This document shows, piece after piece, positions 3,403 through 64,000 of a stretch of 64,000 nt of DNA. The first letter of the stretch is position 1, and every line of letters begins with the position of its first letter. Source of the DNA: an uncultured Azospirillum sp. (GTDB taxonomy: Bacteria; Pseudomonadota; Alphaproteobacteria; Azospirillales; Azospirillaceae); NCBI GenBank assembly GCA_965650625.1, contig CBFGPE010000004.1, positions 23,115 to 87,114 on the forward strand, read 5' to 3'. The notes beneath the pieces were generated by a model. It searched no databases. It was not told the DNA's origin and saw nothing but the letters and a program-made list of their open reading frames with translations. A program made the position numbers and the translations under genes.

Positions 3403-4920
3403 ATCGGCCAGGACTTCCATGCCGCTCTCCAGCAGAGCACGGGACAGGGAGTGCTTGGTCATCTGTTCGATATGCTCGCGGGTTTCCCAGCCGAAGCGCT
3501 GGGCCACCATGTCGAGATAGCGCTTGTTGGTGAAATATTCGGTAAAGGCCTGATCGCGGAAGCCCAGCACCTCCGCGGCGGAAATCTTTTCCGTCGGCAG
3601 CGGGGTGCAGTCGTAGCTGTGCTGGGAATAACCGCTCCACTGTTCCGGCAGGGCCCATCCCCTTTCCACCGCCATGGCGTAGAGCGGCGATCCCGGATAG
3701 GCCATCGCGGAATAGAAGTTGCCGAACTCGCAGTTCAGCTCCTTGGCCAGTTCCAGCGTCGCCCGCATGCTGTCCAGGTCGTCGTCGGGCAGACCGAAGA
3801 TGTAATTGCCGATGACGTGAATGCCGGCGGTCTGGATCGACTGTACAACGACACGGATGTCGTCCTGGGTGAAGGACTTGGACGCGCCGTCGCGGACATG
3901 CTCGCTGCCGGATTCGATGCCCAGGGCAAGCCAGCGGAATCCCGCCTTGCGCAGCTTTTCCAGCATGTGCGGCTTGACCGTGTCGACCCGGGCGTAGGCC
4001 CAGATGTTCAGGTCATAGCCGCGTTCGATCAGCCGGTCGCAGATCGCCAGGACATGGCGTTCGTTCAGGACGAACATCTCGTCGATGAACTTGTAGGTCT
4101 TGACGCCATAGTCGTTGTACAACCGGTCGATCTCGGCGACGACAGCGTCGGGCGAGCGCATGCGGTACCGGTTCACCCCGAACGGCGCGTTGATGCAGCA
4201 GAAGCTGCATTTGTAGGGGCAGCCGAGCGAGGTGTAGATGGAGGCGTAGGGCTGCCGCGATCCAAGGTTGCCGAAGCACTGCCAGTTGTGCGCCCGGTAC
4301 TTCTCCATCGGCAGCAGATCCCACACGTTGCCGTGCAGGTCGCCGTCGAGATCCTTGATCAGGGCCGGGGCGAGGTTGTTGCGGATCGTGCCGCCATCCG
4401 CATCCCCTCCGGTCCCCGCCACGCGGTAGACCAGCCCCTCCACCGCTTCGAGCGGCGGAGCCGGTTCCTTCAGCGCGTCGAGAAGCTGGGCGACGGTCAC
4501 CGGCCCTTCGCTGTTGCAGGCGAAGTCCACCGCCTCCTCGCGCAGCGTGCGCTCCGGCAGGGCGGCGACATGGCCGCCGACGATGATGATCGGCTGTTCG
4601 GGCAGGCGCGCCTTGATGGCGCGGCAGGTCAGTCCGGCCCCGACCATCTGCTGGGTCGAGGCGGAGGGCTGATGGCCGAACACCACCATTGCCACCAGGC
4701 GTGGCGCCAGTTCGGCGATGCGCTCCGCCACCTGGTCGGCGGTCAGGTGATCGGCCTCGGCGTCGATGATGTGGATGGAGTGGCCGCGGTCGCGGACATA
4801 GCCGCCGATCAGCCGGCACCACAGCGGCGGTTCGATCGCGGTCAGGGTTGACCCGAGGGACTGATAGATCTTGGTCCGCTCACCAGGGTTGACGAGGACG
4901 AGATCGACGTTCGGACTCAT
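3400..4920 (-). CDS. Cobalamin-binding radical SAM protein (class B methyltransferase-like)
   Basis: N-terminal B12-binding-like domain (IIIVGGHVAALPE), CxxxCxxC motif GCPYKCSFC, FIDEMF, WAYARVD, LGIESGS, and YPGSPLY. Confidence 0.9.
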   Translation of the reverse strand: MSPNVDLVLVNPGERTKIYQSLGSTLTAIEPPLWCRLIGGYVRDRGHSIHIIDAEADHLTADQVAERIAELAPRLVAMVVFGHQPSASTQQMVGAGLTCRAIKARLPEQPIIIVGGHVAALPERTLREEAVDFACNSEGPVTVAQLLDALKEPAPPLEAVEGLVYRVAGTGGDADGGTIRNNLAPALIKDLDGDLHGNVWDLLPMEKYRAHNWQCFGNLGSRQPYASIYTSLGCPYKCSFCCINAPFGVNRYRMRSPDAVVAEIDRLYNDYGVKTYKFIDEMFVLNERHVLAICDRLIERGYDLNIWAYARVDTVKPHMLEKLRKAGFRWLALGIESGSEHVRDGASKSFTQDDIRVVVQSIQTAGIHVIGNYIFGLPDDDLDSMRATLELAKELNCEFGNFYSAMAYPGSPLYAMAVERGWALPEQWSGYSQHSYDCTPLPTEKISAAEVLGFRDQAFTEYFTNKRYLDMVAQRFGWETREHIEQMTKHSLSRALLESGMEVLAD

Positions 4921-49423: not shown

Positions 49424-52400
49424 ATGACCACCATTCTCCCAGACCTGTCAGACGCTCCGGCCGGTGCCGTGCCCGCCTGTTCTTGCCTGCTGTGCAGTGC
49501 CGCCTGGAGTGCCGCCCCCATCGCCGCAAGTCCGGACCCGCAAGGCGCGCTGCCGCAGGGCGCCGCCTCGTCCACCGTCCAGGCCTTGCTGGCGATGGGG
49601 ACGCCGCGCTGGGGCAGCGGCGCGGTCGGCAGCGGGGCGACGGTCACCTACAGCTTCATGGAGCAGGCGCCGTCCTATGCCACCACCGCGGACGGGAGCG
49701 GCTTCGCGACGCTGTCCAGCGCCCAGCGCGACGCGGTGCGGCAGGCCTTCGCCGCCTGGAGTTCGGTCGCCAACATCTTCTTCGTCGAGACCTCCGACAG
49801 CGCCAACAGCGGGCAGGGCGGGTCGATCCGCATCGGCACCAACCGGCAAAGCTCCAGCGCCGCCTACGCCTATTATCCGACAGGCTCGCTCTATGACGGC
49901 GGCGGCGACATCTATCTCGCCAACAACGCCTCGACCAACACCAGCCCGACGCCGGGAAGCTACGGCTATCTGACCATCCTGCACGAGATCGGGCACGCCA
50001 TCGGGCTGAAGCATCCCGGCAACTACAACGCCACCGGCGGCGGGGGCGAGCCGCCCTACCTGTCCTCGACCGAGGACAATTACCGCTACACGCTCATGTC
50101 CTACAACCGGCACCCCAGCCTGGGCCTGAACGGGCTGGCGACGGGGCCGGCGCTGTACGACATCGCGGCGGCCCAGTACCTGTACGGCGCCAACACCGAC
50201 ACCCGCATCGGCGACGACCGCTATGCCTTCGCCAGCAACACCGTGGCTGTCAGCCAAGCCATCTGGGATGCCGGCGGCACCGATAGCATCGACGCCAGCG
50301 GGCAGGCGTCCGCCGTCACCATCGACCTGACGCCCGGTGCCTTCAGCTCCATCGGTCCCAACGGATCGGGCGGGCTGGCGGTGGGCAATGTGGCGATCGC
50401 CGCCGGCGTCACCATCGAGAACGCCATTGGCGGTGCCGGCAACGACATCCTGATCGGCAATTCCGCCAACAACCTGCTGATCGGCGGCGCCGGTGACGAC
50501 ACGCTGACCGGCGACGCGGGCGACGACACGCTGCAGGGCAACGGCGGCATCGACACCGCGGTCTACAACGGCAGCCGCTCCTCCTACACCGTTACCGTCA
50601 CGTCCGACGGCGCCACCATCTCCGGCGGCGGCGAGGGCACCGACACGCTGACCGACGTCGAATTCGCCCTGTTCGCCGACACCCGGATCAGCCTGACGCC
50701 CCCGGCGGTCACCGCCAAGGCCGGCCGGGTTTCCATCGGCTCCTCGATCACCATCGCCAGTCTGGTGACGGCGACCGATCCGGCCGGCGGCCTCGTCACC
50801 CAATATGAGCTGGTCGACAACACCAGCGGCGCCGGCTCCATCATGGTCGGCGGGGTGGCCCAGGCCACCGGCGCCGTGGTCTCGCTGAGTGCCGCCGCCT
50901 TCGCCGGCGTCACCTTCGCCGCCTCATCCCTGACCAGCCTCGACGAACTGTCGGTGCGCGCCTACAACGGCGTGGCCTGGAGCCGCTGGGTCGGCTTTAT
51001 CGTCTCCTCCCGCCCGGCCAACCGGCCGCCGTCCGTCCAGGGCGACAAGACCCTGACCGCCCTGGAAGCCGGGCCGGCCATCGCTCTCGGCATCGACCGG
51101 CCGAGCGACCCGGACGAAGGCGACAGCATGGCGGTGACGCTGACCCGGCTGCCGACCGCCGGCACGCTGCGGCTGGCCAACGGCACCGCCGTCACCGCCG
51201 GGATGACGCTCGGCACCGCCGATCTGGGCGGCCTCACCTATCAGGCCCCATCCGGGACCCCGTCGTCGCCGGGCTCCTTCGCCTACACCGTCACCGACAG
51301 TCAGGGCGCGGTCAGCGGCCAGACCGTGACCTTGCGGGTGACCCCGCTGGCCGAGACGATGGCCGGCTTCGACCCGCTGGCCTATCTCGCCTCCAATCCC
51401 GATCTCGCCGCCGCCTTCGGCAGCGACACCACGGCGGCCCGCGAGCATTACCTGCGCTTCGGCCGGGCGGAGGGCAGGGCGGTCGCAGCCTTCGATCCGC
51501 TCTCCTATCTGGCGGCCAATCCGGATCTGGTGGCCGCCTTCGGCTACGATCCTGCGGCGGCGAGCCGGCATTATCTGACCTTCGGCCGGCGGGAGGGGCG
51601 CTCGACCGGCAGCTTCGATCCGCTGGCCTATCTGGCGGCCAATCCCGACCTGTCCGCCGCCTTCGGCACCGACACCGTCGCCGCCACCCGCCATTACCTG
51701 ACCCTCGGGCAGCGGGAGGGGCGCAGCATCCGCTTCGACGCCTTCGGCTATCTGGTGTCGAACCAGGATCTGTCCGCCGCCTTTGGTCTGGATCCGACAG
51801 CGGCGACCCGCCACTACCTGACCATGGGCCGGCAGGAAGGGCGCAGCATCACCTTCGACAGCCTGGGCTATCTCGCCGCAAACCCCGATCTGGCCGCAAA
51901 CTTCGGCATCGACACCGCCAAGGCGGCCCGGCACTACCTATCCTACGGCCGGTCCGAAGGGCGCAGCAGCAGCTTCGACGCTCTCTCCTACCTAGCGGCG
52001 AACCGCGATCTGGCGGCCGCCTTCGGCAACGATTCCACACGGGCGGAGGAGCATTACATCCGCTTCGGCCGTCTGGAGAACCGCAGCACCAGCTTCAGCA
52101 CCCACGACTATCTGCTGGCCAACCCGGACCTGCTCAGCGTCTTCTCGGGCAACGAGCAGCAGGTGAAGCTCTATGTCGTGCTCTACGGCAACACACCGCG
52201 GCGCGACGATGCCGGTTTCGATGCCCTGAGCTATCTGGCTGCCAATCCGGATCTGGCAGCGCGCTTCGGCACCGACACCGCGGCGGCCACCACCTATTAC
52301 CAGTCCACCGGCCAGACGGAGGGGCGGCCGACCCGGTTCAACGCGCTCGCCTACCTGATGGCCAACCCCGACCTCAGTGCCGCCTTCGGCAGCGACCAGC

Positions 52401-52531
52401 AGAAGGCGCTGATCCACTTCATCCAGTATGGCCGCAACGAATCCCGCCCCAACCCGATCGGCTATGTCCGCCCGTCCGCGGCCGGGCTCGCCATGGCGAA
52501 TGATGGGATGCTGGCGGCCGGTGTGGGGTGA
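49424..52531 (+). CDS. Serralysin-like M10 zinc metalloprotease with RTX repeats, Ig/cadherin-like domain and nine C-terminal ~40-aa repeats
   Basis: HEIGHAIGLKHP zinc motif, Met-turn TLMSY, IWDAGGTDSID, GGAGND/GGAGDD/GDAGDD nonamers, and DPDEGD. No signal peptide seen. Confidence 0.9.
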   Translation: MTTILPDLSDAPAGAVPACSCLLCSAAWSAAPIAASPDPQGALPQGAASSTVQALLAMGTPRWGSGAVGSGATVTYSFMEQAPSYATTADGSGFATLSSAQRDAVRQAFAAWSSVANIFFVETSDSANSGQGGSIRIGTNRQSSSAAYAYYPTGSLYDGGGDIYLANNASTNTSPTPGSYGYLTILHEIGHAIGLKHPGNYNATGGGGEPPYLSSTEDNYRYTLMSYNRHPSLGLNGLATGPALYDIAAAQYLYGANTDTRIGDDRYAFASNTVAVSQAIWDAGGTDSIDASGQASAVTIDLTPGAFSSIGPNGSGGLAVGNVAIAAGVTIENAIGGAGNDILIGNSANNLLIGGAGDDTLTGDAGDDTLQGNGGIDTAVYNGSRSSYTVTVTSDGATISGGGEGTDTLTDVEFALFADTRISLTPPAVTAKAGRVSIGSSITIASLVTATDPAGGLVTQYELVDNTSGAGSIMVGGVAQATGAVVSLSAAAFAGVTFAASSLTSLDELSVRAYNGVAWSRWVGFIVSSRPANRPPSVQGDKTLTALEAGPAIALGIDRPSDPDEGDSMAVTLTRLPTAGTLRLANGTAVTAGMTLGTADLGGLTYQAPSGTPSSPGSFAYTVTDSQGAVSGQTVTLRVTPLAETMAGFDPLAYLASNPDLAAAFGSDTTAAREHYLRFGRAEGRAVAAFDPLSYLAANPDLVAAFGYDPAAASRHYLTFGRREGRSTGSFDPLAYLAANPDLSAAFGTDTVAATRHYLTLGQREGRSIRFDAFGYLVSNQDLSAAFGLDPTAATRHYLTMGRQEGRSITFDSLGYLAANPDLAANFGIDTAKAARHYLSYGRSEGRSSSFDALSYLAANRDLAAAFGNDSTRAEEHYIRFGRLENRSTSFSTHDYLLANPDLLSVFSGNEQQVKLYVVLYGNTPRRDDAGFDALSYLAANPDLAARFGTDTAAATTYYQSTGQTEGRPTRFNALAYLMANPDLSAAFGSDQQKALIHFIQYGRNESRPNPIGYVRPSAAGLAMANDGMLAAGVG
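51364..52450 (+). repeat. Nine tandem 40-41-aa coding repeats, consensus FDxLxYLAANPDLxAAFGxDxxxAxxHYxxxGxxEGR
   Basis: Counted in the translation; about 120-123-bp periodicity. Confidence 0.9.
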
Positions 52532-52717
52532 TCCCGAAGTCTCACGCCTCCCGGCCGATCAGCCCCACGCCTGCGCGATCCGATGCATCGCATCAATCGC
52601 GCAACCACCGGGCGGACGGCCGGTGTCACGGGCGCGGTCTTATCGAGACCCGTCAAGGAAGGAACCGATTGTGAATTGTCCGCATCGGCCTGCGGATCGC
52701 CTGTGAAGGAAGCGCGA

Positions 52718-53449
52718 ATGTGGAGCAAGGGGGCATGGAAGCGGGCGGTGCGTGCGATGCCGGGAGCCGCCCATCTGATCCCCCTTTACCGCTTCGCCAA
52801 GGGGACGGACGCGCGCTACGCCAACCTGTGGCGGCGAGCGGTGCCCGGCCTGTTCCAGCCGTTCGCGACGACGCAGATGGACCGCTATCCCACCCTGTTC
52901 CGGTTCGCCCTGGCCACTCTGGGGGATGATCCTTCCACACGCCTGCTTTCCTTCGGCTGCTCGACAGGGGAGGAGGTGTTCAGCCTCCGCCGCTATTTCT
53001 CCCAAGCCGTCATCCGGGGAATCGACATCAACCCCCGCAACATCGCGCGCTGTCGGGCCAGTCTGTCGCGTCTGGCAGACGACCGGTTGTCCTTTACCGT
53101 CGCCGCCTCTGCCGCCGGGGAAGAGGCGGGCAGCTATGATGCGGTTTTCGCGATGGCTGTTTTCCGGCATGGGGAGTTGGGCGACTTTCCCCCGCTATGC
53201 AGCCATCTGCTCCGTTTCGACGCCTTCGAACAGGCGCTGACAGAGTTGGCGATCTGCCTGAAGCCCGGTGGCCTGCTGTTCTTGCGCCATGCCAACCACC
53301 GCTTCACGGATACAAGGCTGGCCGACAGTTTCGACCTGCTGCTGGAGGCGCCAAAAAATTCCACGACCCCGATCTATGGCAGGGATGAAAGGCTGCTGGC
53401 GCCACAACCCGTTCTCGAAGGCGTGGCATTCCGCAAGCGGGTGTCCTGA
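52718..53449 (+). CDS. SAM methyltransferase with CheR-like GCSTGEE motif
   Basis: RLLSFGCSTGEE, GIDIN, and LKPGG. Confidence 0.8.
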   Translation: MWSKGAWKRAVRAMPGAAHLIPLYRFAKGTDARYANLWRRAVPGLFQPFATTQMDRYPTLFRFALATLGDDPSTRLLSFGCSTGEEVFSLRRYFSQAVIRGIDINPRNIARCRASLSRLADDRLSFTVAASAAGEEAGSYDAVFAMAVFRHGELGDFPPLCSHLLRFDAFEQALTELAICLKPGGLLFLRHANHRFTDTRLADSFDLLLEAPKNSTTPIYGRDERLLAPQPVLEGVAFRKRVS

Positions 53450-53458
53450 AGCGACGGG

Positions 53459-54103
53459 TCAGTCGCGTGCCCGGTAATGGGCGAGCAGGCGGGGGCACAG
53501 CTTTTCCAGCCGGGCCTCCACCTCCGCGTCGCGGGGCTTGTCGCGAAAGCGTTCGGACACCTCGGTGCCCCGGACATTGCCGAACACGAACTCGAAATGC
53601 TCCATCAGGCCGGGGGTCAGCCGCCACAGCGCCTCCAGCATCTCGTTGTGGCGGCGGCGGTAGTTGTAGAAGTCCTCCTCCACCGGCCAGCCCAGCCCCC
53701 GCATTGTCTCCAGCACCGCCGGATCGCGCACGACGAAATCCTCGTACCGGATCACGGCGTCGAAGCGCTCCCGCTCGGCGAAGATCTGGTCGAGGATGAG
53801 GAACTTCTCGTCGATCAGCCCCGAATAGTTCCGGTAGTTCTTGGTCCGCAGGCTGATGTAGTTGTCGCGGGGGTCGCGCAGCAGCAGGACGATCCGGTGG
53901 GGCCGGAACCGTTCCATATGGACGGGCAGCGGGTAGGCGGTGGTCACCACCACCTTGGCCACCGTGTCCACCGAGGTGTCTAGGCGCGGGGCAGCGAAAT
54001 TATTGGGAATATCGACCAGCGCCAGGCAGTCGGGGCGCTGCGCCAGGAACAACGTGAAGGCGGTCGCCCCGCTGGACTGCATGCCGTAGACAAGAATCCT
54101 CAT
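53459..54103 (-). CDS. Sulfotransferase-like protein
   Basis: YGMQSSGAT loop, LRDPRD..IS, and IRYEDF. Confidence 0.7.
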   Translation of the reverse strand: MRILVYGMQSSGATAFTLFLAQRPDCLALVDIPNNFAAPRLDTSVDTVAKVVVTTAYPLPVHMERFRPHRIVLLLRDPRDNYISLRTKNYRNYSGLIDEKFLILDQIFAERERFDAVIRYEDFVVRDPAVLETMRGLGWPVEEDFYNYRRRHNEMLEALWRLTPGLMEHFEFVFGNVRGTEVSERFRDKPRDAEVEARLEKLCPRLLAHYRARD

Positions 54104-54119
54104 GTCGTTCGCTCCCGGT

Positions 54120-54911
54120 TCAGGCCGCGGCCACGGTCTTCGCCGCGGGTGGCACCAGCCATTCCCGCTCGATCTCGGCGCTGACGAAGACGTAGCGGCG
54201 GGTGTGCGGGGTGGGGTGGCGGATACCGACCCCGTGGATCGCGTCGATCCCCTGCGGGAAGATCACCATCTGGTTGGCGCGGTAGGGGACGACGGCGGCC
54301 ACCTCCACCGACTCGGCGGGCAGGGCATAGTTCGCGATGTCGGCGACCGGGCCGTTCTTCCAGCGGAACAGCTCCAGATCACCGCCCACCGCGTCGTCGT
54401 CGGGGTGGCGCAGGTAGTACAGGCAGGTGAACAGCCGGTTCGGCATGTCGAGGTGCGGTCCCCGCGAGGTGGAGGGGCCGGCGGTGACTGGCGTGTTGAT
54501 CTCCATCCTGGCCTCCTGAAGGATGCGCGCGCGGTCGAAGCCATCGCGCATCAGCAGCCCCATCGGATGGCCCAGCAGGTCGCCGTCCAGCGCCTCCTTC
54601 ATCGCTGCCGGCCAATGGTCGCGGAACAGCGCCACCACCTCGGCGAAGAAGGCGGGCGAGGTGTGGTAGGCGACGAAATCCTTCCACACCGGCGGCAGCT
54701 CGGTGTGGTTCATGATCTGCCAAGCCGAGAGCTGGTAGCGCCGGTTGCTGCCCGGCGGCTTCGAGCCGGCCCAGCCGATGACCGGGAAGGGCGGATAGCC
54801 CTCGTTCAAGGCGCGGTAGGTATCCCCGTCCAGCACGTCCGGCACGACCAGATGAGGAAAGGGATCGAGGCGGATGTCGAACGGGGTCAGGCCGGAAAGC
54901 AGGGACCGCAT
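54120..54911 (-). CDS. 2OG-Fe(II) oxygenase-like protein
   Basis: PFPHLVVPD, HxD (PHLD), LYY, GGDLEL, NQMVIF, HGV, and RRYV. Confidence 0.8.
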   Translation of the reverse strand: MRSLLSGLTPFDIRLDPFPHLVVPDVLDGDTYRALNEGYPPFPVIGWAGSKPPGSNRRYQLSAWQIMNHTELPPVWKDFVAYHTSPAFFAEVVALFRDHWPAAMKEALDGDLLGHPMGLLMRDGFDRARILQEARMEINTPVTAGPSTSRGPHLDMPNRLFTCLYYLRHPDDDAVGGDLELFRWKNGPVADIANYALPAESVEVAAVVPYRANQMVIFPQGIDAIHGVGIRHPTPHTRRYVFVSAEIEREWLVPPAAKTVAAA

Positions 54912-55192
54912 GCTTGATGTCCTGGTCGGTGGGCGGTTCGGTGGGGGCGATTCGGTAGAGGCGGCCCGGTGGGCGCCACGCTACCATCCAGCGGAAGGCC
55001 GGGGAATACAAGTCACATTGATAGAGATTGTCCCCGCTCCGTCAACCTGCGGAACGTGCAAGGGTACATTGCCGGCGATTGAAGAAATCGGCTAAGATTT
55101 CCCGGATGAGGATCTCCGGTTCCGGCTGCCGCGGCGCGTTTCGACCGGGATCGGCCGATGGATACCAACGCACCGATGAGCGCACCGCACCG

Positions 55193-55810
55193 ATGAACGC
55201 CTTCCAAGCGCCGGCACCCTACCGCATCGTCCGCAACTTCCTGGGCGACGAGCTGATCGAGCGGCTGCTGGCCCATGCCCTGGCCAGCCGGGAGGACTTC
55301 GCTCCGACGCGGGTTGGCGGCAAAACGGGGCGCGAGGATCGGGAAATCCGCATCTCCCTGGTGCTGCGCAAGCTCGGACCGCTGAAAGACGAGCTCAAGG
55401 CCCGGTTTCGGGCAATGGCCGACTGGTCGGTCGGGGAATTCCGCCTGTCGCCCTTCGATCTCGACTCGATGGAGATCGAGCTGGTCGCCCACGGCGACGG
55501 CGCCTTCTACGCGCGGCACATCGACACCGCGACGGGGGATCCCGAGCTCGCCAGCGACCGCGTCCTCACCGGCGTTCTCTACTTCCACGCGCTGCCCAGG
55601 CGTTTCAGCGGCGGCGAACTGCGCATGCATTCGATCCTGCCACCGGAGCACGGCGGCCGGCATGAGGACATCGAGATGGAGCGGGACATGCTGCTGCTAT
55701 TCCCGTCCTGGGCGCCGCACGAGGTCCGGCCGGTCTCCTGCCCCTCCGGCGACTTCGCCGACCACCGCTTCGCCATCAATTGCTGGTACCGGAAGCGGCG
55801 CGCCGCATGA
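55193..55810 (+). CDS. 2OG-Fe(II) oxygenase (prolyl-hydroxylase-like)
   Basis: YARHID, VLYF, GGELR, FPSWAPHEV, and RFAINCW. Confidence 0.85.
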   Translation: MNAFQAPAPYRIVRNFLGDELIERLLAHALASREDFAPTRVGGKTGREDREIRISLVLRKLGPLKDELKARFRAMADWSVGEFRLSPFDLDSMEIELVAHGDGAFYARHIDTATGDPELASDRVLTGVLYFHALPRRFSGGELRMHSILPPEHGGRHEDIEMERDMLLLFPSWAPHEVRPVSCPSGDFADHRFAINCWYRKRRAA

Positions 55811-55944
55811 TCCCCAACCCCCTTGCCGACGCCCTGTTCCGCGGCTGCGAGCTGGTGCACGGGCGCCCCCTTCTGCCATCCGGCCAGGACAGCTGGGTGC
55901 TGCTGCACTATTTCGACGCCGACTTCGCGGGGCCGCTCGATTGA
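55807..55944 (+). pseudogene. 45-aa ORF, possibly a C-terminal fragment of a 2OG-Fe(II) oxygenase
   Basis: MIPNPLADALFRGCELVHGR...WVLLHYFDAD, with ATGA overlap. Resemblance to the oxygenase C-terminal GCE-x-x-H-x-R...LHY segment is from recall. Confidence 0.35.
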
Positions 55945-55990
55945 CGGAAGACTTGGTGTCGGCTTTCAACCACAGGGGAGACCGCGCCTC

Positions 55991-57928
55991 ATGCGGCTGA
56001 TCTGCGGCTTCCTGCGTCTCGACGGGTGTCCGGCCGAGGGCGAACGGCTCGACGCCATGGCGGCCGCCATGGTGGGGCCAGGCCTGTCACCGTCCGTCGC
56101 CCGCCGTATCGACGGCCCGGTGGCCCTGGCGATGCTCGACTTCGCCAGTCCCCGTTCCTGGCCGGCGGCCGGGGGGATGCCGGCTGGAGAGAGCGGCCTG
56201 CTGCTGGCGGCCGATATCCGCCTCGATGAACCGGACCGGCTGGCCGGGGCGTTGGGCGGAGCGCTGGGCAACGCAGACGGCTCCGCCGGCACGGGACGGG
56301 ACGACGGACTGCTGCTATCCGCGCTGGAGCGCTGGGGACAGGGGGGCGTGGGCCGCGTGCTCGGCGACTTCGCCTTTGCGGCGTGGGATCCGCGCTCGCG
56401 CAGCCTGCTGTGCGCCCGCGACGCCATGGGGGTGCGCCCCTTCTTCTTCCTGCACCGTCCGGGTGAGGCCTTCGCCTTCGCCTCGCTGCCGCGCGGGCTG
56501 CATGCCGGCGGCTTCGCTGCGCGGGAACTCGACGAGGAGTACCTGCTCGGCACGCTGTTGCTTACGCCCCTCGGGCCGGAGCGCTCGTTCTTCCGTGGGA
56601 TGGAGCGTCTGGCGCCGGGCGGCCTGCTGCGGGTTTCGGCCGGAGGGCTCGAACGGAGTCTCCACTGGCAACCCGACGAGGCCACGGCGGGGCGCCGAGC
56701 CTGCCGGCCGGAAGAGGCGGCCGAAGAGATGGCGGCGCTGCTGGCGGAAGCGGTGCGCTGCCGCCTGCCCGCGGCGGGGCCGGTGGCGACGCATCTCAGC
56801 GGCGGCCTCGACTCCTCGACCGTTACCGTCCTGGCGGCGCGGATGCTGCGCGGCCAGGGGCGTCCGCTGTGCGCCTATTCGTTCCTGCCGCGACGAGGCG
56901 ACGGCTATTCGGACAACGACGAGCGGCCGTATATCGATGCCGTCCTCCGCCAGGAGCCGGACATCGACTGGACTCCCGTCCACATCACCGACCCGGCGGC
57001 CTTCGTCCTGCCGCGCCTGGATCCGGATCAGCCCTACTCCTGCGACCCCGCCACGCCCGAGGTACAGGTCTGTGCCGACGCCGCGGCGCGCGGCGCCGGC
57101 ACCTTGCTAACAGGCTGGGGCGGCGACGAGGGGGCGACCTTCCATGGCGGCGGAGCCTTGGCCGAAGCGTTCCTGGCCGGACGCTGGCGGACCCTGGCCC
57201 GGGAGGTTCGGGCTCTGGAGAAACTGGGGCGGTCGCCGATGTCGGTGGTGCGCGGCGACATCCTGCCCTACCTGATTCCCGATCGGGCGCAACGGCTGAT
57301 CAGGCGCCTGCTGGGCCGACCGCCGCAACGGACCGGCTACGAGAGGGTCGCCGCGCTGCTCCGCCCCGGCGCGGTTGCCGGGGTTTCATCGTCGAGCTTC
57401 GTCTTCAGGCCCGACGCCGTGGCGAACCGCTTGGCGGGGCTGACGGAGCCGGGCGTCGCGGCCAACGTCGAGAAGCTGGCGACGATGGGGGCCCGGTATG
57501 GTCTCGCCGTCGCCTTCCCGATGCTGGACCGGCGGCTGGTCGCGTTCGTGCTGTCGTTGCCCAGCGCCCTGTTCCTGCGCGACGGGTGGAGGAGGCGCCT
57601 CTTCCGCGACGCCATGGCCGGCGTGCTGCCGTCCGAAATCCGCTGGCGCCCGGACAAGCTCGCCGCGATTCCGGAACAGCCGGACCTCGTGCTCGGGCAG
57701 CGCGACGCCCTGTTGGCGCAGTTGCCCCCGTTGCGCCGGCATCCGCGCATTGCCGCCCTCTTCGACCTCGACGTCATCGAGGAGCGGCTGCGTGCCCTGC
57801 CGTCCGCCGACGAGACGCCGAAGACCTTGTCACTCCGGGAGGCGCAAGAGGTCAGGCGGAGCATCTCGGTACTTTGGCGGGTTCTCTGCTTCGCCATCTA
57901 CGTGCAGCATCATCACGGTATGGACTGA
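55991..57928 (+). CDS. Asparagine-synthase-like lasso peptide cyclase (C protein)
   Basis: GDFAFAAWD, ARDAMGVRP, HLSGGLDS, TGWGGDE, and PMLDRRLV..RR.FRDAM. Lacks the Cys at residue 2 needed for glutaminase activity. Adjacent to B1/B2. Confidence 0.8.
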   Translation: MRLICGFLRLDGCPAEGERLDAMAAAMVGPGLSPSVARRIDGPVALAMLDFASPRSWPAAGGMPAGESGLLLAADIRLDEPDRLAGALGGALGNADGSAGTGRDDGLLLSALERWGQGGVGRVLGDFAFAAWDPRSRSLLCARDAMGVRPFFFLHRPGEAFAFASLPRGLHAGGFAARELDEEYLLGTLLLTPLGPERSFFRGMERLAPGGLLRVSAGGLERSLHWQPDEATAGRRACRPEEAAEEMAALLAEAVRCRLPAAGPVATHLSGGLDSSTVTVLAARMLRGQGRPLCAYSFLPRRGDGYSDNDERPYIDAVLRQEPDIDWTPVHITDPAAFVLPRLDPDQPYSCDPATPEVQVCADAAARGAGTLLTGWGGDEGATFHGGGALAEAFLAGRWRTLAREVRALEKLGRSPMSVVRGDILPYLIPDRAQRLIRRLLGRPPQRTGYERVAALLRPGAVAGVSSSSFVFRPDAVANRLAGLTEPGVAANVEKLATMGARYGLAVAFPMLDRRLVAFVLSLPSALFLRDGWRRRLFRDAMAGVLPSEIRWRPDKLAAIPEQPDLVLGQRDALLAQLPPLRRHPRIAALFDLDVIEERLRALPSADETPKTLSLREAQEVRRSISVLWRVLCFAIYVQHHHGMD

Positions 57929-58462
57929 CTGACCGGCCGCCGCTGTATTGGCTGCTGTACTGGGTGCCGTCTCGTGGGTGAAGCGGGCGATTTCGGTGAA
58001 GCCGCGGCTGACCGGGACGCCGACCACGCCCATGTCGCCGACGGTCAGCCACGCGTGCGCTTCCATCCTCTGGCCGGCCCTCTGGCCGTCCCGGTGGCCG
58101 GTGCCATCCGTGGCCAGGCGCATGCCGAAATGGAGCGTCGAGGCGATGCAGCGCCGATGGAGCATCAGCTTGGCAACGATTGCCTGTGGCAGACAGTGCG
58201 CCTGGCACGGCAGATGGCGGGCGGCACGACCGACCGCCATTCCGACCCTGCGGATGGCGGTCTGCCGTCGTTCGTCAAGGGGAAAGGCGGCGTCGATGCC
58301 GCTGGATGGAGGGCCGCCGGACAGGACGCCGAACCGGGCGGCGATCCATCGGAACGGCAGCAGGCCCAGCACCGCGAGTGCCAGCACCAGCCACGCCGCC
58401 GCCTCCAGCGTCAGCCACCGGTCCCCTGCGGGAAGGTTCAGGAATTTACGCAGCCGTTCCAT
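57830..58462 (-). CDS. Lasso peptide B2 leader peptidase (transglutaminase-like)
   Basis: CLPQA (Cys), LHFG, AHAW (His), and VVG. Confidence 0.88.
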   Translation of the reverse strand: MERLRKFLNLPAGDRWLTLEAAAWLVLALAVLGLLPFRWIAARFGVLSGGPPSSGIDAAFPLDERRQTAIRRVGMAVGRAARHLPCQAHCLPQAIVAKLMLHRRCIASTLHFGMRLATDGTGHRDGQRAGQRMEAHAWLTVGDMGVVGVPVSRGFTEIARFTHETAPSTAANTAAAGQSVHTVMMLHVDGEAENPPKYRDAPPDLLRLPE

Positions 58463-58754
58463 CGCCCGGCTTCAGCAGCCCGCGCTCATGCAAGGTCCCC
58501 AGGAAGCGCTCAGCCTCGTCCCGTGCCGTGGCGGGGGCGACCTCGTACTCGGCGACCAGTTGCGCGACCAGCCGCTCCAGCGTCGTGGGGGTTTCGAGCA
58601 ATTCCCAGATCCGGGTGCCGACGGGGTTCAGGTTGAAGTAGGTGCCGCTCTCGACGCTCATCATCAACAGCTCGTCGTTGACGGCGGCGGTCAGCAGACC
58701 GTCGGCACGCTGGAAGGCTTCATTCCGGGACGGTGCCGCGTCATTCATGGACAT
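58446..58754 (-). CDS. PqqD-family RiPP recognition element (lasso B1)
   Basis: ELLMMS..SGTYFNLNPVGTRIWELL...EYEV....ARDE...FL..L...GLL. Confidence 0.9.
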   Translation of the reverse strand: MSMNDAAPSRNEAFQRADGLLTAAVNDELLMMSVESGTYFNLNPVGTRIWELLETPTTLERLVAQLVAEYEVAPATARDEAERFLGTLHERGLLKPGDGTAA

Positions 58755-58833
58755 TCCCTTTCCAAGCAATTCCCTGCTGTCTCGGGCAACTATTCAGATG
58801 ACAATGTGCGCCCACCTGTCAAACGATAGCGGA

Positions 58834-59685
58834 TCACAAATAGCCGTATCGCTTCATCATCGGGCGATGAGCGGCTGCGATGGCTTCCTGTTGGACCGGC
58901 GTGAGCGTCTCGGCCCACGCCCCCGCGCGGCCGGAGCGGAAGAACGGCGCGATCGATTTCAGTGACCGCTCGGAAAACCCTTTCTGCTGCTCCTGCCGCT
59001 GCAGCGTGGTGAAGTCCGCAAAGCGAGCGGCGCGTTCCACCTGTGCCCGTGACGCTGCCAGCCCCAAAAAAGCGATGGCCGCGCCGAAGCTGCCGACAGG
59101 ATCTGCCCGCAGATCCTCGTACCGTAGTACGTGTACCGGCACATCGTACTGCTCGGTCCAACTGGCCACATGACCACTCCAGTCCAGCGTCACCTGGGGA
59201 AGCTGGCTTTCCAGATGGTTGAGGTTCGCGGCCAAAGTGTGGTGGTTGGAGTTCAGCCATCCGATGGCGTGGTCGATGCCGACATGCGCGTGGAAGGAAA
59301 AAGACACGGCTACATCGCGCGGGTCACGTACTATGTATAGCGCCGCGCGCGCCACGCCACGGCCCAAAACCGGCTCACCGTCGGGGTTTACCCGGTACGC
59401 ATCGTGTACCTTGAGGTACACCGGCTCCGTTGTCTCCGCCACGATGCCCTCGATGATCCGAGGGCGCAGCCGGTCCGCCTCGTCCTTCGTCAGCAGATCC
59501 GTGTCGATCAAAGTGATGTCGTCGGCGTCGGCCCGATTGACCGGATAACGGTTGCAGAGGTTGATCCGGTTGATATCGACCGGCTCCTCCCCCATGGATA
59601 GCAGGTTGGCGAAAAGCAAACGCAGCCACGTGTTGCCCGATTTCGGATAGGACGCCAGCCAAACGATCCTGCCCTCCGGCGCCAT
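58834..59685 (-). CDS. Sulfotransferase (Sulfotransfer_1)
   Basis: WLASYPKSGNTWLR, KVHD, YIVRDPRDVAVS, RYEDL, and FFRSGRAG.W. Confidence 0.92.
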   Translation of the reverse strand: MAPEGRIVWLASYPKSGNTWLRLLFANLLSMGEEPVDINRINLCNRYPVNRADADDITLIDTDLLTKDEADRLRPRIIEGIVAETTEPVYLKVHDAYRVNPDGEPVLGRGVARAALYIVRDPRDVAVSFSFHAHVGIDHAIGWLNSNHHTLAANLNHLESQLPQVTLDWSGHVASWTEQYDVPVHVLRYEDLRADPVGSFGAAIAFLGLAASRAQVERAARFADFTTLQRQEQQKGFSERSLKSIAPFFRSGRAGAWAETLTPVQQEAIAAAHRPMMKRYGYL

Positions 59686-60596
59686 CAGGCACTCTCCCGG
59701 AGGTGCGCAAGAACCATTTGGACGGTTTCATCGAGACGGCCGAAATCAATGGCCTGGGAAAGTCGGAAGACACGGACATGGCCGAGCAGGGCGGCGATCT
59801 GGCCGAAAAGCTGGGTGTCACGTCCCATATGGGACGCCAAGGACGAGCGATACACCTCCCGGCGCAGCAGGGGTGCTGCCTCCACCAGCTTGAGGGGCAG
59901 GAAGGCCGGGACCTGCGGTGGCCGCACTTGCCGGAGCAGAATGACGGTCTTCAGCGGAAAGCTGGGCTGCGCACCCGCGCCACAGGGATCGACATGGTAT
60001 TTCCGGATGCCTTTCCTGACCGCCTCTCCCTGACGGTCGGCAAGCGACAGTCGTTCCACGGCTTCGGCCCACAATCGGTGCCAACGCCCGTCGGACAGCA
60101 CGGAGGGGCGGCCGTCCGGACCGAACCGGATGGCCGAGACGTCATCGCTGATGAACCCGCCTCCCGCCCGGCACAACGCTGCGGCAAAGGTTGATTTCCC
60201 CGCTCCGGTCGGGCCGCACAGCGCCACGCCGCAACCATCGAGGGAGACGGCCGCCGCATGCAGTACCAGGCTCCCGCGCTGATGCAGCGCGGCGCCGAGC
60301 CCAGTACCCAGAAGGAAAGGTGCGGCATCCGCCTCACGCCCCGGCGCTTCCAGAGCCGCAATGATCTCGCGCCCGGCGATGACCAGGCAACGGACCACGC
60401 CGGGTACATGAAAGAGAAACGAGGAACCAGCAACCTGCCAGTTCGGTCCGACGTAGCTTGCACCTTCCATCGTCGTCGGTACGGCACCGCGCCGGATCAC
60501 CACATCCGGTTCAGACCGGGACCGTTCGATCTCCTGATACCCTGCTAAAGCGAACTCCGAAGCGACCGACTGCCCACAGATCAGGTATTGGAACAA
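59685..60596 (-). CDS. HPr-kinase-like lasso peptide kinase (PadeK-type candidate)
   Basis: LVLHAAAV, GPTGAGKST, and ISDD. TTG start; TGATG overlap with the sulfotransferase. Confidence 0.82.
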   Translation of the reverse strand: MFQYLICGQSVASEFALAGYQEIERSRSEPDVVIRRGAVPTTMEGASYVGPNWQVAGSSFLFHVPGVVRCLVIAGREIIAALEAPGREADAAPFLLGTGLGAALHQRGSLVLHAAAVSLDGCGVALCGPTGAGKSTFAAALCRAGGGFISDDVSAIRFGPDGRPSVLSDGRWHRLWAEAVERLSLADRQGEAVRKGIRKYHVDPCGAGAQPSFPLKTVILLRQVRPPQVPAFLPLKLVEAAPLLRREVYRSSLASHMGRDTQLFGQIAALLGHVRVFRLSQAIDFGRLDETVQMVLAHLRESA

Positions 60597-60705
60597 TCAC
60601 CACTCCCAACGCCAGAACGGCATCCTGCCATAGTGTACATCCATCCTTCGCTTCTGGAGGGAGGAAGCTCCGATCACCGATCTGGGAGAGCTGATAAACC
60701 CTAGT

Positions 60706-60873
60706 TCATGACGCCGTAGTATAGGCGGTGGGATTGCTCCCTTCCGGAGTGCCGGCACCTTTCTGCAAGGTCAAGGTCTGAATGCTCTGGCTCTGGATTT
60801 CCGGCGTGACCCACACTTTCTTGGGCTGAGCGGGTTCAGCGTTCGCCGGATGGGGGAGGTCATGCGCAGGCAT
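60706..60873 (-). CDS. Candidate lasso peptide precursor (55 aa), not in the ORF track
   Basis: Manual translation: MPAHDLPHPANAEPAQPKKVWVTPEIQSQSIQTLTL-QKGAGTPEGSNPTAYTTAS*. It has a WxxPxI leader motif, Thr at -2, Glu at core position 8 and a C-terminal Ser, and lies directly upstream of the kinase. Confidence 0.75.
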   Translation of the reverse strand: MPAHDLPHPANAEPAQPKKVWVTPEIQSQSIQTLTLQKGAGTPEGSNPTAYTTAS

Positions 60874-60985
60874 GATGAAGCTTTCGGTCTGGTCGGCAGA
60901 GAGCGGGCCGCAGGTAGTCTGCGACCCCTATGAAACCTAGCAGGATACCGTCAGAGTGACAAGCATCGGTGGCAGCAGCCACGAC

Positions 60986-61537
60986 TCATGCGGGATATTG
61001 TGGTCCCGCCGTCAATTTGGCCTGCTTGGGATCCGGGTGCCACACCATGCTCCAGGCTGGTCCCTGCATTCCAACTTCGACGAAGCCCAGACGGCGGTAG
61101 AGGATCTGCGCCGGGTTCGTCATATCCACGGCGAGGCTGACCGTCTTGCCCTCGTTGGCGGCTTCGGCCTGCACCGCCCGGATCAGCGCCGTTCCCAGGC
61201 CGCGGCCCCGCCATTCCGGAACCAGCGACACGTCGACGACGCGCACGTCGCCGGCAGTACGGAGCAGGTAGAGCCGCCCGATGGGGACGTCGCCCTGCAC
61301 CAGGATGCCGAAATCGGCATCGGCGTAGGCGGCGGCGTAGTGGTGCGCCTGGAAGGCGAACTGCTGGGCCAGGAACGCCCGCTTGGCTTCCTCCGGCCAT
61401 CCGGTCGGATCGAGTTCGCCGATGCGGATCGAGACGAACAGCCGCTCCAGGAACGGCCGGTCGTCCGCGGTCTCGCCACGCAGGGCGAAGCCCTGCCCTG
61501 CGCCATGCAGGGCAAGGCTTCGGTATGCGGTCTGCAT
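60986..61537 (-). CDS. GNAT N-acetyltransferase
   Basis: QFAFQAHHY...PIGRLY...VVDVSLVPEWRGRGLGT...NPAQILYRRLGF. Confidence 0.88.
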   Translation of the reverse strand: MQTAYRSLALHGAGQGFALRGETADDRPFLERLFVSIRIGELDPTGWPEEAKRAFLAQQFAFQAHHYAAAYADADFGILVQGDVPIGRLYLLRTAGDVRVVDVSLVPEWRGRGLGTALIRAVQAEAANEGKTVSLAVDMTNPAQILYRRLGFVEVGMQGPAWSMVWHPDPKQAKLTAGPQYPA

Positions 61538-61550
61538 CGCCGGCACGCGA

Positions 61551-62147
61551 TCAATTCCGCACCGGGAAGACCCCGTCATTGTTGATGCAGAACAGCATCG
61601 TCAGATACGGCTGCCGGTTCTCATGCGCATCGACGCCGCCCGCGGTGTTGCCGCCGCCGACGGTGATGGAAGCCCCATGCATCATCGTGTCGGGCGACTG
61701 TCCGGTGTTCGCGATGTACGCCGCCACGTTGTTGTAGGTGGTGGCGGAAGTCGGCTGGACGACACGCGCCAGCCAGGACTGGTTGGCCACGGGCGTGGTC
61801 TGCGTGTTGGTCTGAATGCCGGTCGCTACCGGATTCTCCACCGTCATCGTGTGGTTGTGCGGCGGTAGCTGCTGGCCGCTGAGAACCACCGTCTTGCTGC
61901 CGACCGTCGTGGCCCCCCAGTGCCGCGGCGACAGGCCCGGCCCCTGGCCCTGGCACATGACGGTGAAGCCCTGCAGGTTGGGCAGCTTGAAGGTCTGGTT
62001 GGGGGTGCCGCCCCAGGTGTTGCCGATGATGGCGTAGAGCGCCGCATTCAGGGGCGCGGAGATTTCCTGCCCGTTGCAGATGTACCAGCCCTGCGGAACG
62101 TACCCGAAGGCGAATGCGCGAATTTCGCCGATGTAAGCGTCAGCCAT
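61551..62147 (-). CDS. Phage tail collar domain protein 3 (MdpB-like)
   Basis: YIGEIRAFAF...PQGWYICNGQ...LYAIIGNTWGG...FKLPNLQG...HENRQPYL..FCI...GVFP.RN. Confidence 0.88.
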   Translation of the reverse strand: MADAYIGEIRAFAFGYVPQGWYICNGQEISAPLNAALYAIIGNTWGGTPNQTFKLPNLQGFTVMCQGQGPGLSPRHWGATTVGSKTVVLSGQQLPPHNHTMTVENPVATGIQTNTQTTPVANQSWLARVVQPTSATTYNNVAAYIANTGQSPDTMMHGASITVGGGNTAGGVDAHENRQPYLTMLFCINNDGVFPVRN

Positions 62148-62162
62148 GGTTTTGCCTCCCTC

Positions 62163-62705
62163 TTACGCCCGGGTGGGGAAAGTGCCGTTCAGGGCGATGA
62201 TATAGGTCAGGACCGCGGTGGGCATGACGTTGGCATGCCCGACGCCCGCCCCCTCGGTCGAGATGGTGGAGGCCACCGGGTTGACCGCCGATCCGCCGGC
62301 GCTGCCCAGGCCGCTCTTCAGGTACATGGCCGTGGGGCTGGTGGTGTTGGCGAACATCACCGTGCTGCCGGGGTTCGGCGTGGTGGCCGGGAGGCCGGCG
62401 GTCCGCAGGAGGTGGTTGTGCGCCCCGGTGTGCGCGGCCTGCAGCGACACGGTCTCGCTGCCGCCGGACTGCCCCATGACGCGGTTGGTTAGGCCGGTTC
62501 CTTGGCCCTGCCCGATCGGGATGCGGCCGCGCAGGTCGGGGATGCCGAAGGTCTGGACGCCGTCGCCGCCGTAGGTGGTGCCGATCAGCGCGTACAGCGC
62601 CTGATAGGTGTTGATGGCAAGCAGCGAGCCGTCGCAGATGTGCCAGTCGGCTGGTGGGTAGCTGCCCGCGAACAGCCGGATCTCGCCAACGAAATAATCG
62701 GTCAT
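62163..62705 (-). CDS. Phage tail collar domain protein 2 (MdpB-like)
   Basis: FVGEIRLFAG...WHICDG.LL....ALYALIGTTYGGDG..TF.IPDLRGR...H.NVMP...YIIAL.G.FP. Confidence 0.9.
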   Translation of the reverse strand: MTDYFVGEIRLFAGSYPPADWHICDGSLLAINTYQALYALIGTTYGGDGVQTFGIPDLRGRIPIGQGQGTGLTNRVMGQSGGSETVSLQAAHTGAHNHLLRTAGLPATTPNPGSTVMFANTTSPTAMYLKSGLGSAGGSAVNPVASTISTEGAGVGHANVMPTAVLTYIIALNGTFPTRA

Positions 62706-62738
62706 GGATGCTCCCTTCTCCGAATCAATGGGCCGTCG

Positions 62739-63281
62739 TCAGTTCCGCGCCGGATAAAGGCCGACGATCGCGATGCAGAAATTCAGCACTAGGAAGGGTT
62801 GCATGTTGTTGTGCCCCGCGGCGGCAGGCGTGGTGGAGATCGTCGCCGGGTTGAGCGTGATGGGGGCCGTTCCGGGCGCGCCGTAGATGCTCGGCGCCGT
62901 CGTCACCTTCGCATTGGTGCCTGTCGAGGCGAAGAAGTTGCCGGACGGATTCGGTGCGACACCGGCGGCGGCGAGCCCGTTGACCGTGTGCTGGTGCGGC
63001 GGGATCTGGGTGCCGGTCAGCGCCACCGTCTCCACCCCCAGCGCCTTGCCGCGCATGTAGTCGCCCGAGGGATCGTTCAGGTTCAGGTGAGCCATCGCGC
63101 GCCCGCGCAGGTCGGGCAGATTGAACGTCGTCGTCCCGTTGCCGCCGTACGTCGTGCCGAGCAGGGAGAACAGCGCCTGGTTCCCCTGGATTTGCATGGT
63201 GGTGCCGTCGCACAGATGCCATCCGTCCGGCGCCCAATTCATCGGGAACACCCGGATTTCGCCCAAGAACCAATCACTCAT
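62739..63281 (-). CDS. Phage tail collar domain protein 1 (MdpB-like)
   Basis: FLGEIRVF...WHLCDG...NQALFSLLGTTYGGNGTTTFNLPDLRGR...HNNMQPFLVLNFCIAIVGLYP.RN. Confidence 0.9.
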   Translation of the reverse strand: MSDWFLGEIRVFPMNWAPDGWHLCDGTTMQIQGNQALFSLLGTTYGGNGTTTFNLPDLRGRAMAHLNLNDPSGDYMRGKALGVETVALTGTQIPPHQHTVNGLAAAGVAPNPSGNFFASTGTNAKVTTAPSIYGAPGTAPITLNPATISTTPAAAGHNNMQPFLVLNFCIAIVGLYPARN

Positions 63282-63669
63282 AGCGTTCCTCCTCGCAGCC
63301 TTGGAGCGTACCAGAAGCATGCAAATCAATGGCGACCGGCAACTTCGGATACATACTCCTGCCTATATCACGGGTTGATTTGGCCTTATCGCATCAAATT
63401 GTGACAAAGGCGCCCTCCACATGCAACGGGATGTCTGTTTGATTTCAATGCAGTAGCAATACGCGATATGGCATACGTAAGCGTGTTGCGGACCTTGAGA
63501 TAATCTACTGGAAGTACGTTCGCGGTCCCGACCTTGGTTCTGGTTCCATGCGACTCGGATGTATCACCGGAATGTTTTTCGCCTTTGCCGGTCTTCGTTT
63601 CCAAGCCCGTGACGGTTCGGGTATGGTCGCGCCCGCGAACCAGCCTGCCATCCCATGACGGGAACCGCC

Positions 63670-64000
63670 ATGCGAGCGATCCTTTTCGGCCTGCTCCGGC
63701 ACCTTCGCCCGTCCGGGGATGCGGTATCCCCGGCGGGGGAATTCGCCGCCTTCCTGCGCGACGTCGCCGCCTTCGCCGGCTGGCGGCTGGCCGGGATGGC
63801 GGTGCTGGCGGTGCTGGCCGCCGCGGCGGAGGGTATCGGCCTGCTGCTGCTGGTGCCGCTGCTCTCGATGGTCGGTGTCGGGGTCGGCGGCGTGGGAGGT
63901 AACCGGCCGGGGGAGAGCGGCCGGTCCTGGCTGGCCTTCCTTGGACTGGGGACCGGACTGGAAGGCGCGCTGGTCCTCTATGTGGTCCTGGTGGCGGCGG
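63670..64000 (+). CDS. ABC transporter permease/ATP-binding protein, N-terminal part (lasso D-type candidate), truncated by the window edge
   Basis: Manual translation MRAILFGLLRH...LAVLAAAAEGIGLLLLVPLLSMVG... is hydrophobic and open to the window end. Confidence 0.65.
   Translation, partial: MRAILFGLLRHLRPSGDAVSPAGEFAAFLRDVAAFAGWRLAGMAVLAVLAAAAEGIGLLLLVPLLSMVGVGVGGVGGNRPGESGRSWLAFLGLGTGLEGALVLYVVLVAA

Follow-up and report, generated by a model that had tools for sequence, protein, structure and literature searches.

A predicted lasso peptide precursor with a putative Gln1 core in a kinase- and sulfotransferase-carrying cluster of an uncultured Azospirillum

In a 64,000-nucleotide stretch of DNA from an uncultured Azospirillum sp. 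(henceforth referred to as the window), a very short open reading frame (ORF) had been proposed to encode a lasso peptide precursor whose core would start with Gln, which raises the questions of whether this frame is a gene at all and of where its product would be cut. Re-translation of the minus strand recovered the ORF exactly as described (positions 60706–60873, ATG start, 55 amino acids plus stop, translation MPAHDLPHPANAEPAQPKKVWVTPEIQSQSIQTLTLQKGAGTPEGSNPTAYTTAS). The precursor identity originally claimed fits its W-x-x-P-x-I leader motif, a Thr that would stand at −2 and a Glu that would fall at core position 8, and we hold it very likely that the 55 codons are a genuine lasso peptide precursor gene of the kinase-associated type.

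Gene neighbourhood of the precursor

The precursor gene (A) lies 109 nt upstream of a run of genes for a kinase (K), a sulfotransferase, B1 and B2, with the cyclase gene (C) convergent with this run and the exporter gene (D) diverging. The full lasso gene set (A, K, sulfotransferase, B1, B2, C and D) is present, and the small ORF stands, as expected of a lasso precursor, beside B1, B2 and C genes. K (59685–60596, minus strand, 303 aa) resembles HPr-kinase-like lasso precursor kinases (partial matches to PF07475, TIGR04352 and TIGR04355), and its stop codon overlaps the start codon of a 283-aa PAPS-type sulfotransferase gene (58834–59685, minus strand; PF00685, E=1.4e-22). On the same strand follow B1, a PqqD-like RiPP recognition element of about 100–102 aa (58446–58754; PF05402, E=1.7e-21; NF033536 lasso_PqqD, E=4e-20), whose start was inferred from GGAAAGGG followed by ATG, and the leader peptidase B2, a transglutaminase-like Cys protease (57830–58462; PF13471, E=1.7e-17; NF033537 lasso_biosyn_B2, E=5e-20). 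The Asn-synthetase-like lasso cyclase C (55991–57928, plus strand; NF033535, E=2e-81; PF00733) was given the start of the 645-aa gene calls in relatives, and its 3' end shares 99 nt (57830–57928) with that of the convergent B2 gene. B2 has 210 aa in the window against 182–187 aa in 97%-identical relatives, so that the extra residues at its C-terminus may stem from read-through. The ABC exporter D (ABC_membrane plus ABC_tran, 645 aa) begins at 63655 on the plus strand and continues past the window end at 64000; the full gene was read in the genome contig, and an exporter occupies the same position in the related locus L050.

Directly upstream of the precursor lies a GNAT acetyltransferase gene (60986–61579, minus strand; PF13508, PF00583), followed towards the exporter by three genes with tail-collar domains (61551–63329, minus strand; PF07484, E=1e-20 to 6e-28). 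The three tail-collar genes are kept in L041–L044, L047 and L050, and the GNAT gene recurs beside the related clusters L047, L050, L053, L054, L056, L060 and L073. As a block between exporter and precursor, the four genes recur in L041–L044, L047 and L050, and part of the block is present in L053, L054, L056, L060 and L073. They appear to travel with this lasso sub-family and not to be chance neighbours. Upstream of the cyclase is a 2OG-Fe(II) oxygenase gene (55028–55810, plus strand; PF13640, E=7.6e-16), and such a gene adjoins the cyclase also in L048, L049, L050, L057 and L102. Further out, a 2OG oxygenase (54120–54911) and a 214-aa sulfotransferase-like protein (53459–54103) are 83–90% identical to their counterparts in L047 and L050, whereas the lasso genes proper are only 55–70% identical to theirs, which suggests either a mosaic history or that the lasso core genes have evolved much faster. 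Between cyclase and 2OG oxygenase, L041, one of the assemblies nearly identical to the window, carries an extra gene of 277 aa without a Pfam match (9401–10234); L048 and L049 have similar genes of 279–284 aa at this site, and L042, L043 and the window show only a gap of about 190 nt or a 66-aa call.

A family of small ORFs upstream of the kinase

No Pfam or NCBIfam model matches the precursor peptide, and a search of 60 related genomes gave only weak, chance-level matches and no homologue; the lasso cluster is rare in the genus, where homologues of the kinase reach only 30–36% identity and have a different arrangement. A single homologue, P0002, 91% identical and also 55 aa long, was recovered from a collection of 5.8 billion proteins; six independent assemblies encode it, in the gene order of the window. 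As regards the original description of the ORF as unannotated, gene callers found the homologous ORF in these six assemblies and missed it in the NCBI Niveispirillum assembly, so that "often unannotated" is a fair statement.

We built the family outward from the kinase homologues, inspecting clusters with kinases 45–63% identical for small ORFs. When we looked for homologous small ORFs next to similar kinases, a check that had been suggested, each of the related clusters examined proved to have one immediately 5' of the kinase, and all share the leader motif KKxWxxPE(I/V)xxQxI. At 45–63% kinase identity the leader reads KK(P/V/T)Wx(T/A)PE(I/V)x(D/S)Qx(I/V) and the peptide ends in Ser. Among about 1.4 million six-frame residues from related loci, a strict form of the motif, [KR]x0-2[WYF]xxPE[IVLM]xx[QE], was matched 24 times, and all 24 matches lie in a small ORF directly 5' of the kinase and on the same strand. 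In the window the leader, Met1–Leu36 under the register favoured below (60766–60873, minus strand), contains K18-K19, W21-V-T-P24-E-I26, Q29-S-I31 and Thr35 at −2; the (Y/W)xxPxL-type motif claimed for it is thus present as W21-V-T-P24-E-I26, is of the type bound by RiPP recognition elements and is kept in all family members, among them 18 unique close ones. A C-terminal Ser ends 43 of 43 unique family peptides, chosen regardless of their C-terminus, compared with a background of 9% in random small frames. Confinement of the strict motif to ORFs 5' of the kinase and the universal C-terminal Ser argue, at the level of sequence, that the 55-codon ORF is not a product of chance.

The core, Gln37–Ser55 (QKGAGTPEGSNPTAYTTAS; 60709–60765, minus strand), would carry a Gln1–Glu8 macrolactam, Lys2, Tyr15 and, as predicted kinase target, Ser19. 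Its Glu, at position 8 (or 7 if the leader is cut one residue later), is its sole acidic residue; there is no Cys, and Tyr15 is the only bulky residue of the tail. Bulky residues beyond position 10 are absent from 12 of 43 family cores.

Several relatives depart from the simple arrangement. In L058, L063, L064 and L080 the leader motif of the precursor, 5' of the kinase at about 3600–3970 of each locus, is tandemly duplicated (KKAWTTPEIRKAWTTPEIRDQSI and KKAWSKPALKTWTKPAIRDQSI are examples), which gives two candidate B1-binding sites per leader. Niveispirillum sp. SYP-B3756 has two paralogous clusters, one with Ala1 (L049/L093, AKSNSPNE...) and one with Gln1 (L053, QKTNQTNE...). A relative of the same class, G045, carries ten separate homologues of the HPr-kinase-like gene in one genome, an unusual expansion.

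The clusters of the six assemblies that encode P0002 are 96.9% identical in nucleotide sequence to that of the window. Given that intergenic DNA is equally conserved, this overall figure is uninformative, and the signal lies in where the differences fall. The 108 nt of the leader differ from the near relatives by one substitution, compared with about 14–17% of positions in the core plus stop codon. The near relatives have an additional in-frame GTG (Val) codon between Leu36 and Gln37 and a tail one codon shorter, and both total length and C-terminal Ser are kept despite the indel. The same pattern of conserved leader and variable core was seen in an independent pair, L053 and L073.

That the ORF is spurious or untranslated, with the true precursor elsewhere or the cluster without one, is in our judgement very improbable. 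It could draw on the null searches of Pfam, NCBIfam and the 60 related genomes and on the ribosome-binding site, described originally as weak: the GAAAG found 9–13 nt 5' of the ATG is indeed modest, but each of the 14 family members checked has a purine-rich Shine-Dalgarno-like element 8–13 nt 5' of its ATG, so that the placement is consistent. Also speaking against a spurious ORF are a peptide conserved in the same place throughout the family, the universal C-terminal Ser, and an in-frame indel and substitutions concentrated in the core, and no second ORF with the leader motif was found in positions 50001–64000 of the window. A promoter and terminator scan and a fold of the 109-nt spacer between A and K gave nothing above shuffled controls (z=+1.2).

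Leader cleavage and the first residue of the core

To place the end of the leader, every fixed offset from the motif Pro was scored over 76 unique family peptides. With the core starting at Pro+13 (Thr at Pro+11), Thr stands at −2 in 63% of the peptides, Gly, Ala or Ser at position 1 in 50% and Asp or Glu at positions 7–9 in 80%; starting at Pro+14 the figures are 13%, 36% and 76%, and at no offset other than 13 does Thr at −2 exceed 17%. When the register is set peptide by peptide from Thr at −2, rings of 7–9 residues result in 60 of 66. Thr35 of the window stands at this family-wide fixed offset from the motif, and the best register is the one with Thr at −2, which is also the general rule for lasso peptide leaders. 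As an example, the Novosphingobium members (...ISALTA/GGGTSGIEG..., cut at the slash) would have a canonical Gly1–Glu8 ring in this register. The register statistics thus favour the main original proposal, and we consider it probable, though far from certain, that cleavage would occur after Leu36 and give the 19-aa core with its Gln1–Glu8 ring.

The original prediction had overlooked another register, in which B2 cuts one residue later, after Gln37, leaving the core KGAGTPEGSNPTAYTTAS with a Lys1–Glu7 ring, Thr35 at −3 and Leu36 at −2; we regard this as unlikely, albeit deserving of serious attention. It had overlooked too the junction codon indel of the near relatives and a Lys that precedes the acceptor Glu by exactly six residues; 35 of the 51 cores with a Lys show this spacing, irrespective of how far the Lys lies from Thr. 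With the later cut W21, P24 and I26 fall at −17, −14 and −12, where YxxPxL is reported to lie in other phosphorylated lasso precursors, as in those of the BsfA type, and a hydrophobic Ile, Val or Ala at −2 is documented for kinase-type clusters (PMC10368454). The conserved Lys, which according to lineage is the first, second or third core residue, would become position 1 in 13 of 23 close relatives; its fixed spacing from Glu hints that the ring may be anchored on it. Applied to P0002, the later cut yields Gln1–Glu8. In the sub-lineage of the window both registers lead to acceptable rings, of 8, 9 or 10 residues with Thr at −2 and of 7, 8 or 9 with Thr at −3, and L047, the closest non-trivial relative, has a 10-residue ring under Thr at −2 and is a better fit to Thr at −3. 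The same is suggested for the lineage of L122 and L124 (Pseudohongiella and related MAGs), which have four to five precursor genes per locus, several with 10-residue rings under Thr at −2; a shift by one residue gives all of them Gly1 and rings of 8–9 residues. Weighing against the later cut is that Thr is conserved whereas the residue after it varies (E, Q, A, L, N, T, R and others), that Thr at −2 and a small residue 1 become rarer across the family, as the scores at Pro+14 demonstrate, and that about a dozen members with Lys directly after Thr-x would be left with impossible 6-residue rings. Nor can a −17/−14/−12 spacing of the motif be universal, as the experimentally defined paeninodin precursor reportedly has it at −15/−12/−10.

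The Gln/Ala swap between L053 and L073 was tried as a further test of the register and did not discriminate, the site being simply the variable −1 residue if the cut is later. The masses of the Gln1–Glu8 and Lys1–Glu7 products differ by 128.06 Da and would be easily separable by mass spectrometry.

The other cut that had been entertained originally, after Thr33-Leu34 with Thr1 and a 10-residue ring, looks like a Thr(−2)-x junction when this single sequence is viewed by itself. At the equivalent family site, however, T, S, A, D, E and others are found, and it is the Thr two residues on, Thr35, that is conserved; moreover, 10-residue lasso rings are not known, ring closure being at positions 7–9 (PMC10368454, PMC12480086). 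We give this cut practically no credence.

With Gln (or Lys, if the cut is later) at position 1, the core of the window lacks the small first residue that is typical, although not defining, of lasso peptides. Under Thr at −2 the family has G (17), K (15), S (8), A (6), V (4), Q, L, H and N (3 each) and F, R, D and T (once each) at this position, and Gln1 occurs also in L053, the second Niveispirillum cluster, and in L125, from a Sphingomonas MAG. L053 and the locus L073 of Azospirillum cavernae have kinase genes 97% identical and identical leader peptides, and differ at the codon for position 1, which is CAA (Gln) in L053 and GCA (Ala) in L073. In lasso peptides generally, Gly and Ala are the prevailing first residues, and a large-scale survey of precursors found every residue there except Pro (PMC13632552). 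The same study, from 2026, describes natural Phe1 and Glu1 lasso peptides, the palassoptides among them, with an 8-residue ring closed on Glu8, and a cyclase that tolerates nearly any residue at position 1, accepting 19, with Gln among the substitutions tested. The palassoptides come from Actinomyces, are made without kinase or sulfotransferase and have an unrelated precursor (PMC13632552). The original description of Gln1 as atypical is right in that the residue is uncommon, but it is less exceptional than implied and not unprecedented. A literature search for "Gln1" with "lasso peptide" returned no relevant paper, and a Gln1 lasso natural product has probably not yet been characterised. The competing formation of pyroglutamate, also raised originally, is a reasonable chemical aside; the lasso and pyroglutamate outcomes would differ by 0.984 Da.

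Tailoring enzymes, known systems and proposed biosynthesis

The kinase motif H...GxxGxGKS...DD is intact in the window with the spacing of the BsfK catalytic motif (PMC10368454), and H113, G128, G131, G133, K134, S135, D151 and D152 are invariant in 18 homologues. This catalytic motif has been defined for lasso kinases (PMC10368454, PMC9266682), and kinases of the family, the proteobacterial SyanK among them, act on the linear precursor, whose C-terminal Ser they phosphorylate and even polyphosphorylate (PMC8498205, PMC9266682). The Ser that ends all 43 peptides matches this target, so that the proposed phosphorylation of Ser19 (Ser55 of the precursor) is well founded by analogy.

The sulfotransferase shows the PAPS-binding motifs PKSGNTW and RDPRD in its translation, and its gene adjoins the kinase gene in most related loci. 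Sulfation of Tyr15, as proposed originally, did not hold up as conserved chemistry of the family, since a tail Tyr was present in just 11 of the 43 family cores; a use of Tyr15 confined to particular lineages is conceivable. Candidate sites for the sulfate are a Ser or Thr hydroxyl of the tail and the phospho-Ser end. A literature search for a sulfated lasso peptide found no publication. Overall, the original prediction is largely supported: the lasso precursor and the C-terminal Ser as kinase target fit, the Gln1–Glu8 core is favoured, and sulfo-Tyr15 and the Thr33-Leu34 cut find no support.

The GNAT acetyltransferase and the 2OG oxygenase are possible tailoring enzymes, the latter as a hydroxylase of the core. 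A GNAT gene beside a precursor with a conserved ring Lys suggests, by analogy, an acetylation of Lys2 like that of albusnodin, an acetyl-Lys lasso peptide of Streptomyces albus from a cluster with an acetyltransferase. The likeness lies in the acetyltransferase and a Lys that could be its target; the cyclase belongs to an unrelated subfamily, the albusnodin model NF033561 reaching only 78 bits on that of the window.

Modifications have been proposed to help hold the thread in pseudomycoidin (PMC6993621), and C-terminal ones may, by analogy, help to retain it in those relatives that lack bulky tail residues. The same observations could be turned towards a peptide that is phosphorylated or sulfated but unthreaded, either branched-cyclic or linear, or closed by a non-canonical ring through the conserved Lys: the tail of the window has a single bulky residue, 12 of 43 relatives have none beyond position 10, modifications are proposed to help hold the thread in pseudomycoidin (PMC6993621), and the Lys-x5-Glu spacing is kept independently of the N-terminus. 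Such a product seems to us distinctly improbable, given that the cluster keeps intact B1 and B2 proteins and a lasso cyclase of full length, all of them conserved, and that the window holds no enzyme for Lys-Glu ligation such as an ATP-grasp protein. An ATP-grasp gene (PF14397) does adjoin the cyclase in L048 (5864–7159), where the precursor also has the Lys-x5-Glu unit; a Lys-Glu cross-link made by such an enzyme was considered on this account and rejected for the window, which has none.

Among known systems, the cluster belongs to the class II, kinase-associated family (paeninodin, ThcoA, SyanA, BsfA) and represents a proteobacterial sub-lineage that carries a sulfotransferase. The proteobacterial kinase-type clusters, with SyanA/SyanK of Sphingobium yanoikuyae ATCC 51230 as their example (Zhu et al. 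2016, FEBS Lett; reviewed in PMC8498205 and PMC9266682), share with it split B1 and B2, an HPr-kinase homologue with the His-Lys-Asp-Asp motif, a W/YxxPx(L/I/V) leader and a terminal Ser. Sphingomonad and Novosphingobium relatives appeared in the same family search with kinases only about 36–40% identical to that of the window. Unlike the SyanA type, the window has a Lys-containing core with Gln1 and not a Gly-rich one (GGGTSGIE...), adds the GNAT, three tail-collar and 2OG oxygenase genes, and has its cyclase on the opposite strand. Reviews describe no isolated mature product for proteobacterial kinase-type lasso clusters (PMC8498205, PMC9266682).

Paeninodin of Paenibacillus dendritiformis C454 (padeA-C-K-B1-B2-D) is likewise class II, with an HPr-kinase homologue and, as in the register favoured here, Thr at −2. 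It differs in its Firmicute host, gene order, Ala1–Asp9 ring and the motif spacing mentioned above, and there is no detectable similarity between the precursor sequences. The C-terminal Ser of paeninodin is phosphorylated on the linear precursor by the HPr-kinase homologue, and putative sulfotransferases lie beside some clusters (PMC8498205). The Bsf cluster of Bradymonas sediminis is of the kinase type too, with the same catalytic motif and spacing; there B1 assists both kinase and B2, and the −2 residue can be other than Thr (PMC10368454). In contrast to what is predicted here, BsfK phosphorylates Ser3 and not the C-terminal Ser, BsfA has Ile at −2 and a Gly1–Asp8 ring, and the cluster carries a nucleotidyltransferase and no sulfotransferase (PMC10368454).

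Taking the Gln1–Glu8 core as our working model, a biosynthetic route can be drawn by analogy with characterised relatives. B1 would bind the leader through W21-x-x-P24-x-I26, and the HPr-kinase-like enzyme would phosphorylate the C-terminal Ser55 on the still-linear peptide. B2 would then cleave after Leu36, with Thr35 as the −2 determinant, and the cyclase would link the alpha-amine of Gln37 to the side chain of Glu44, giving an 8-residue ring and an 11-residue tail. The tail would be threaded and probably held by Tyr15, by the charged C-terminal modification or by both, further decorations would probably be added by the sulfotransferase, GNAT and 2OG oxygenase, and the ABC transporter would export the product.

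Whatever fixed register is taken, the junction codon indel changes the predicted ring size or the first residue. With Thr at −2, the extra Val of the relatives would enlarge the 8-residue ring to one of 9 although their cyclase is 96% identical; this calls for a tolerant enzyme and counts against the working model. As a more speculative idea, which we think rather doubtful, the cyclase may by nature tolerate differences in first residue and ring size (Gln1 with an 8-residue ring in the window, Val1 with a 9-residue ring in the relatives, 96%-identical cyclases and a one-codon indel), or else Lys-x5-Glu, and not Thr at −2, may set the start of the ring; in either case a phosphorylated and sulfated C-terminus would help to hold the thread. 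We know of no lasso peptide for which such a phospho- and sulfo-modified, thread-holding C-terminus has been shown.

This locus adds a well-supported precursor to the proteobacterial kinase/sulfotransferase lasso family, together with a curated set of about 70 precursors, all ending in Ser, in which the leader motif is defined and a Lys is conserved six residues ahead of the Glu that closes the ring. Tyr being unlikely as a general sulfation site redirects the search for the role of the sulfotransferase. The main points of interest are the one-codon indel at the junction in near-identical strains, the Lys-x5-Glu spacing and the uncharacterised sulfation, and the natural pairs in nearly identical clusters (Gln1 against Val-Gln, Gln1 against Ala1) could serve to probe how far a lasso cyclase tolerates changes of residue 1 and of ring size.
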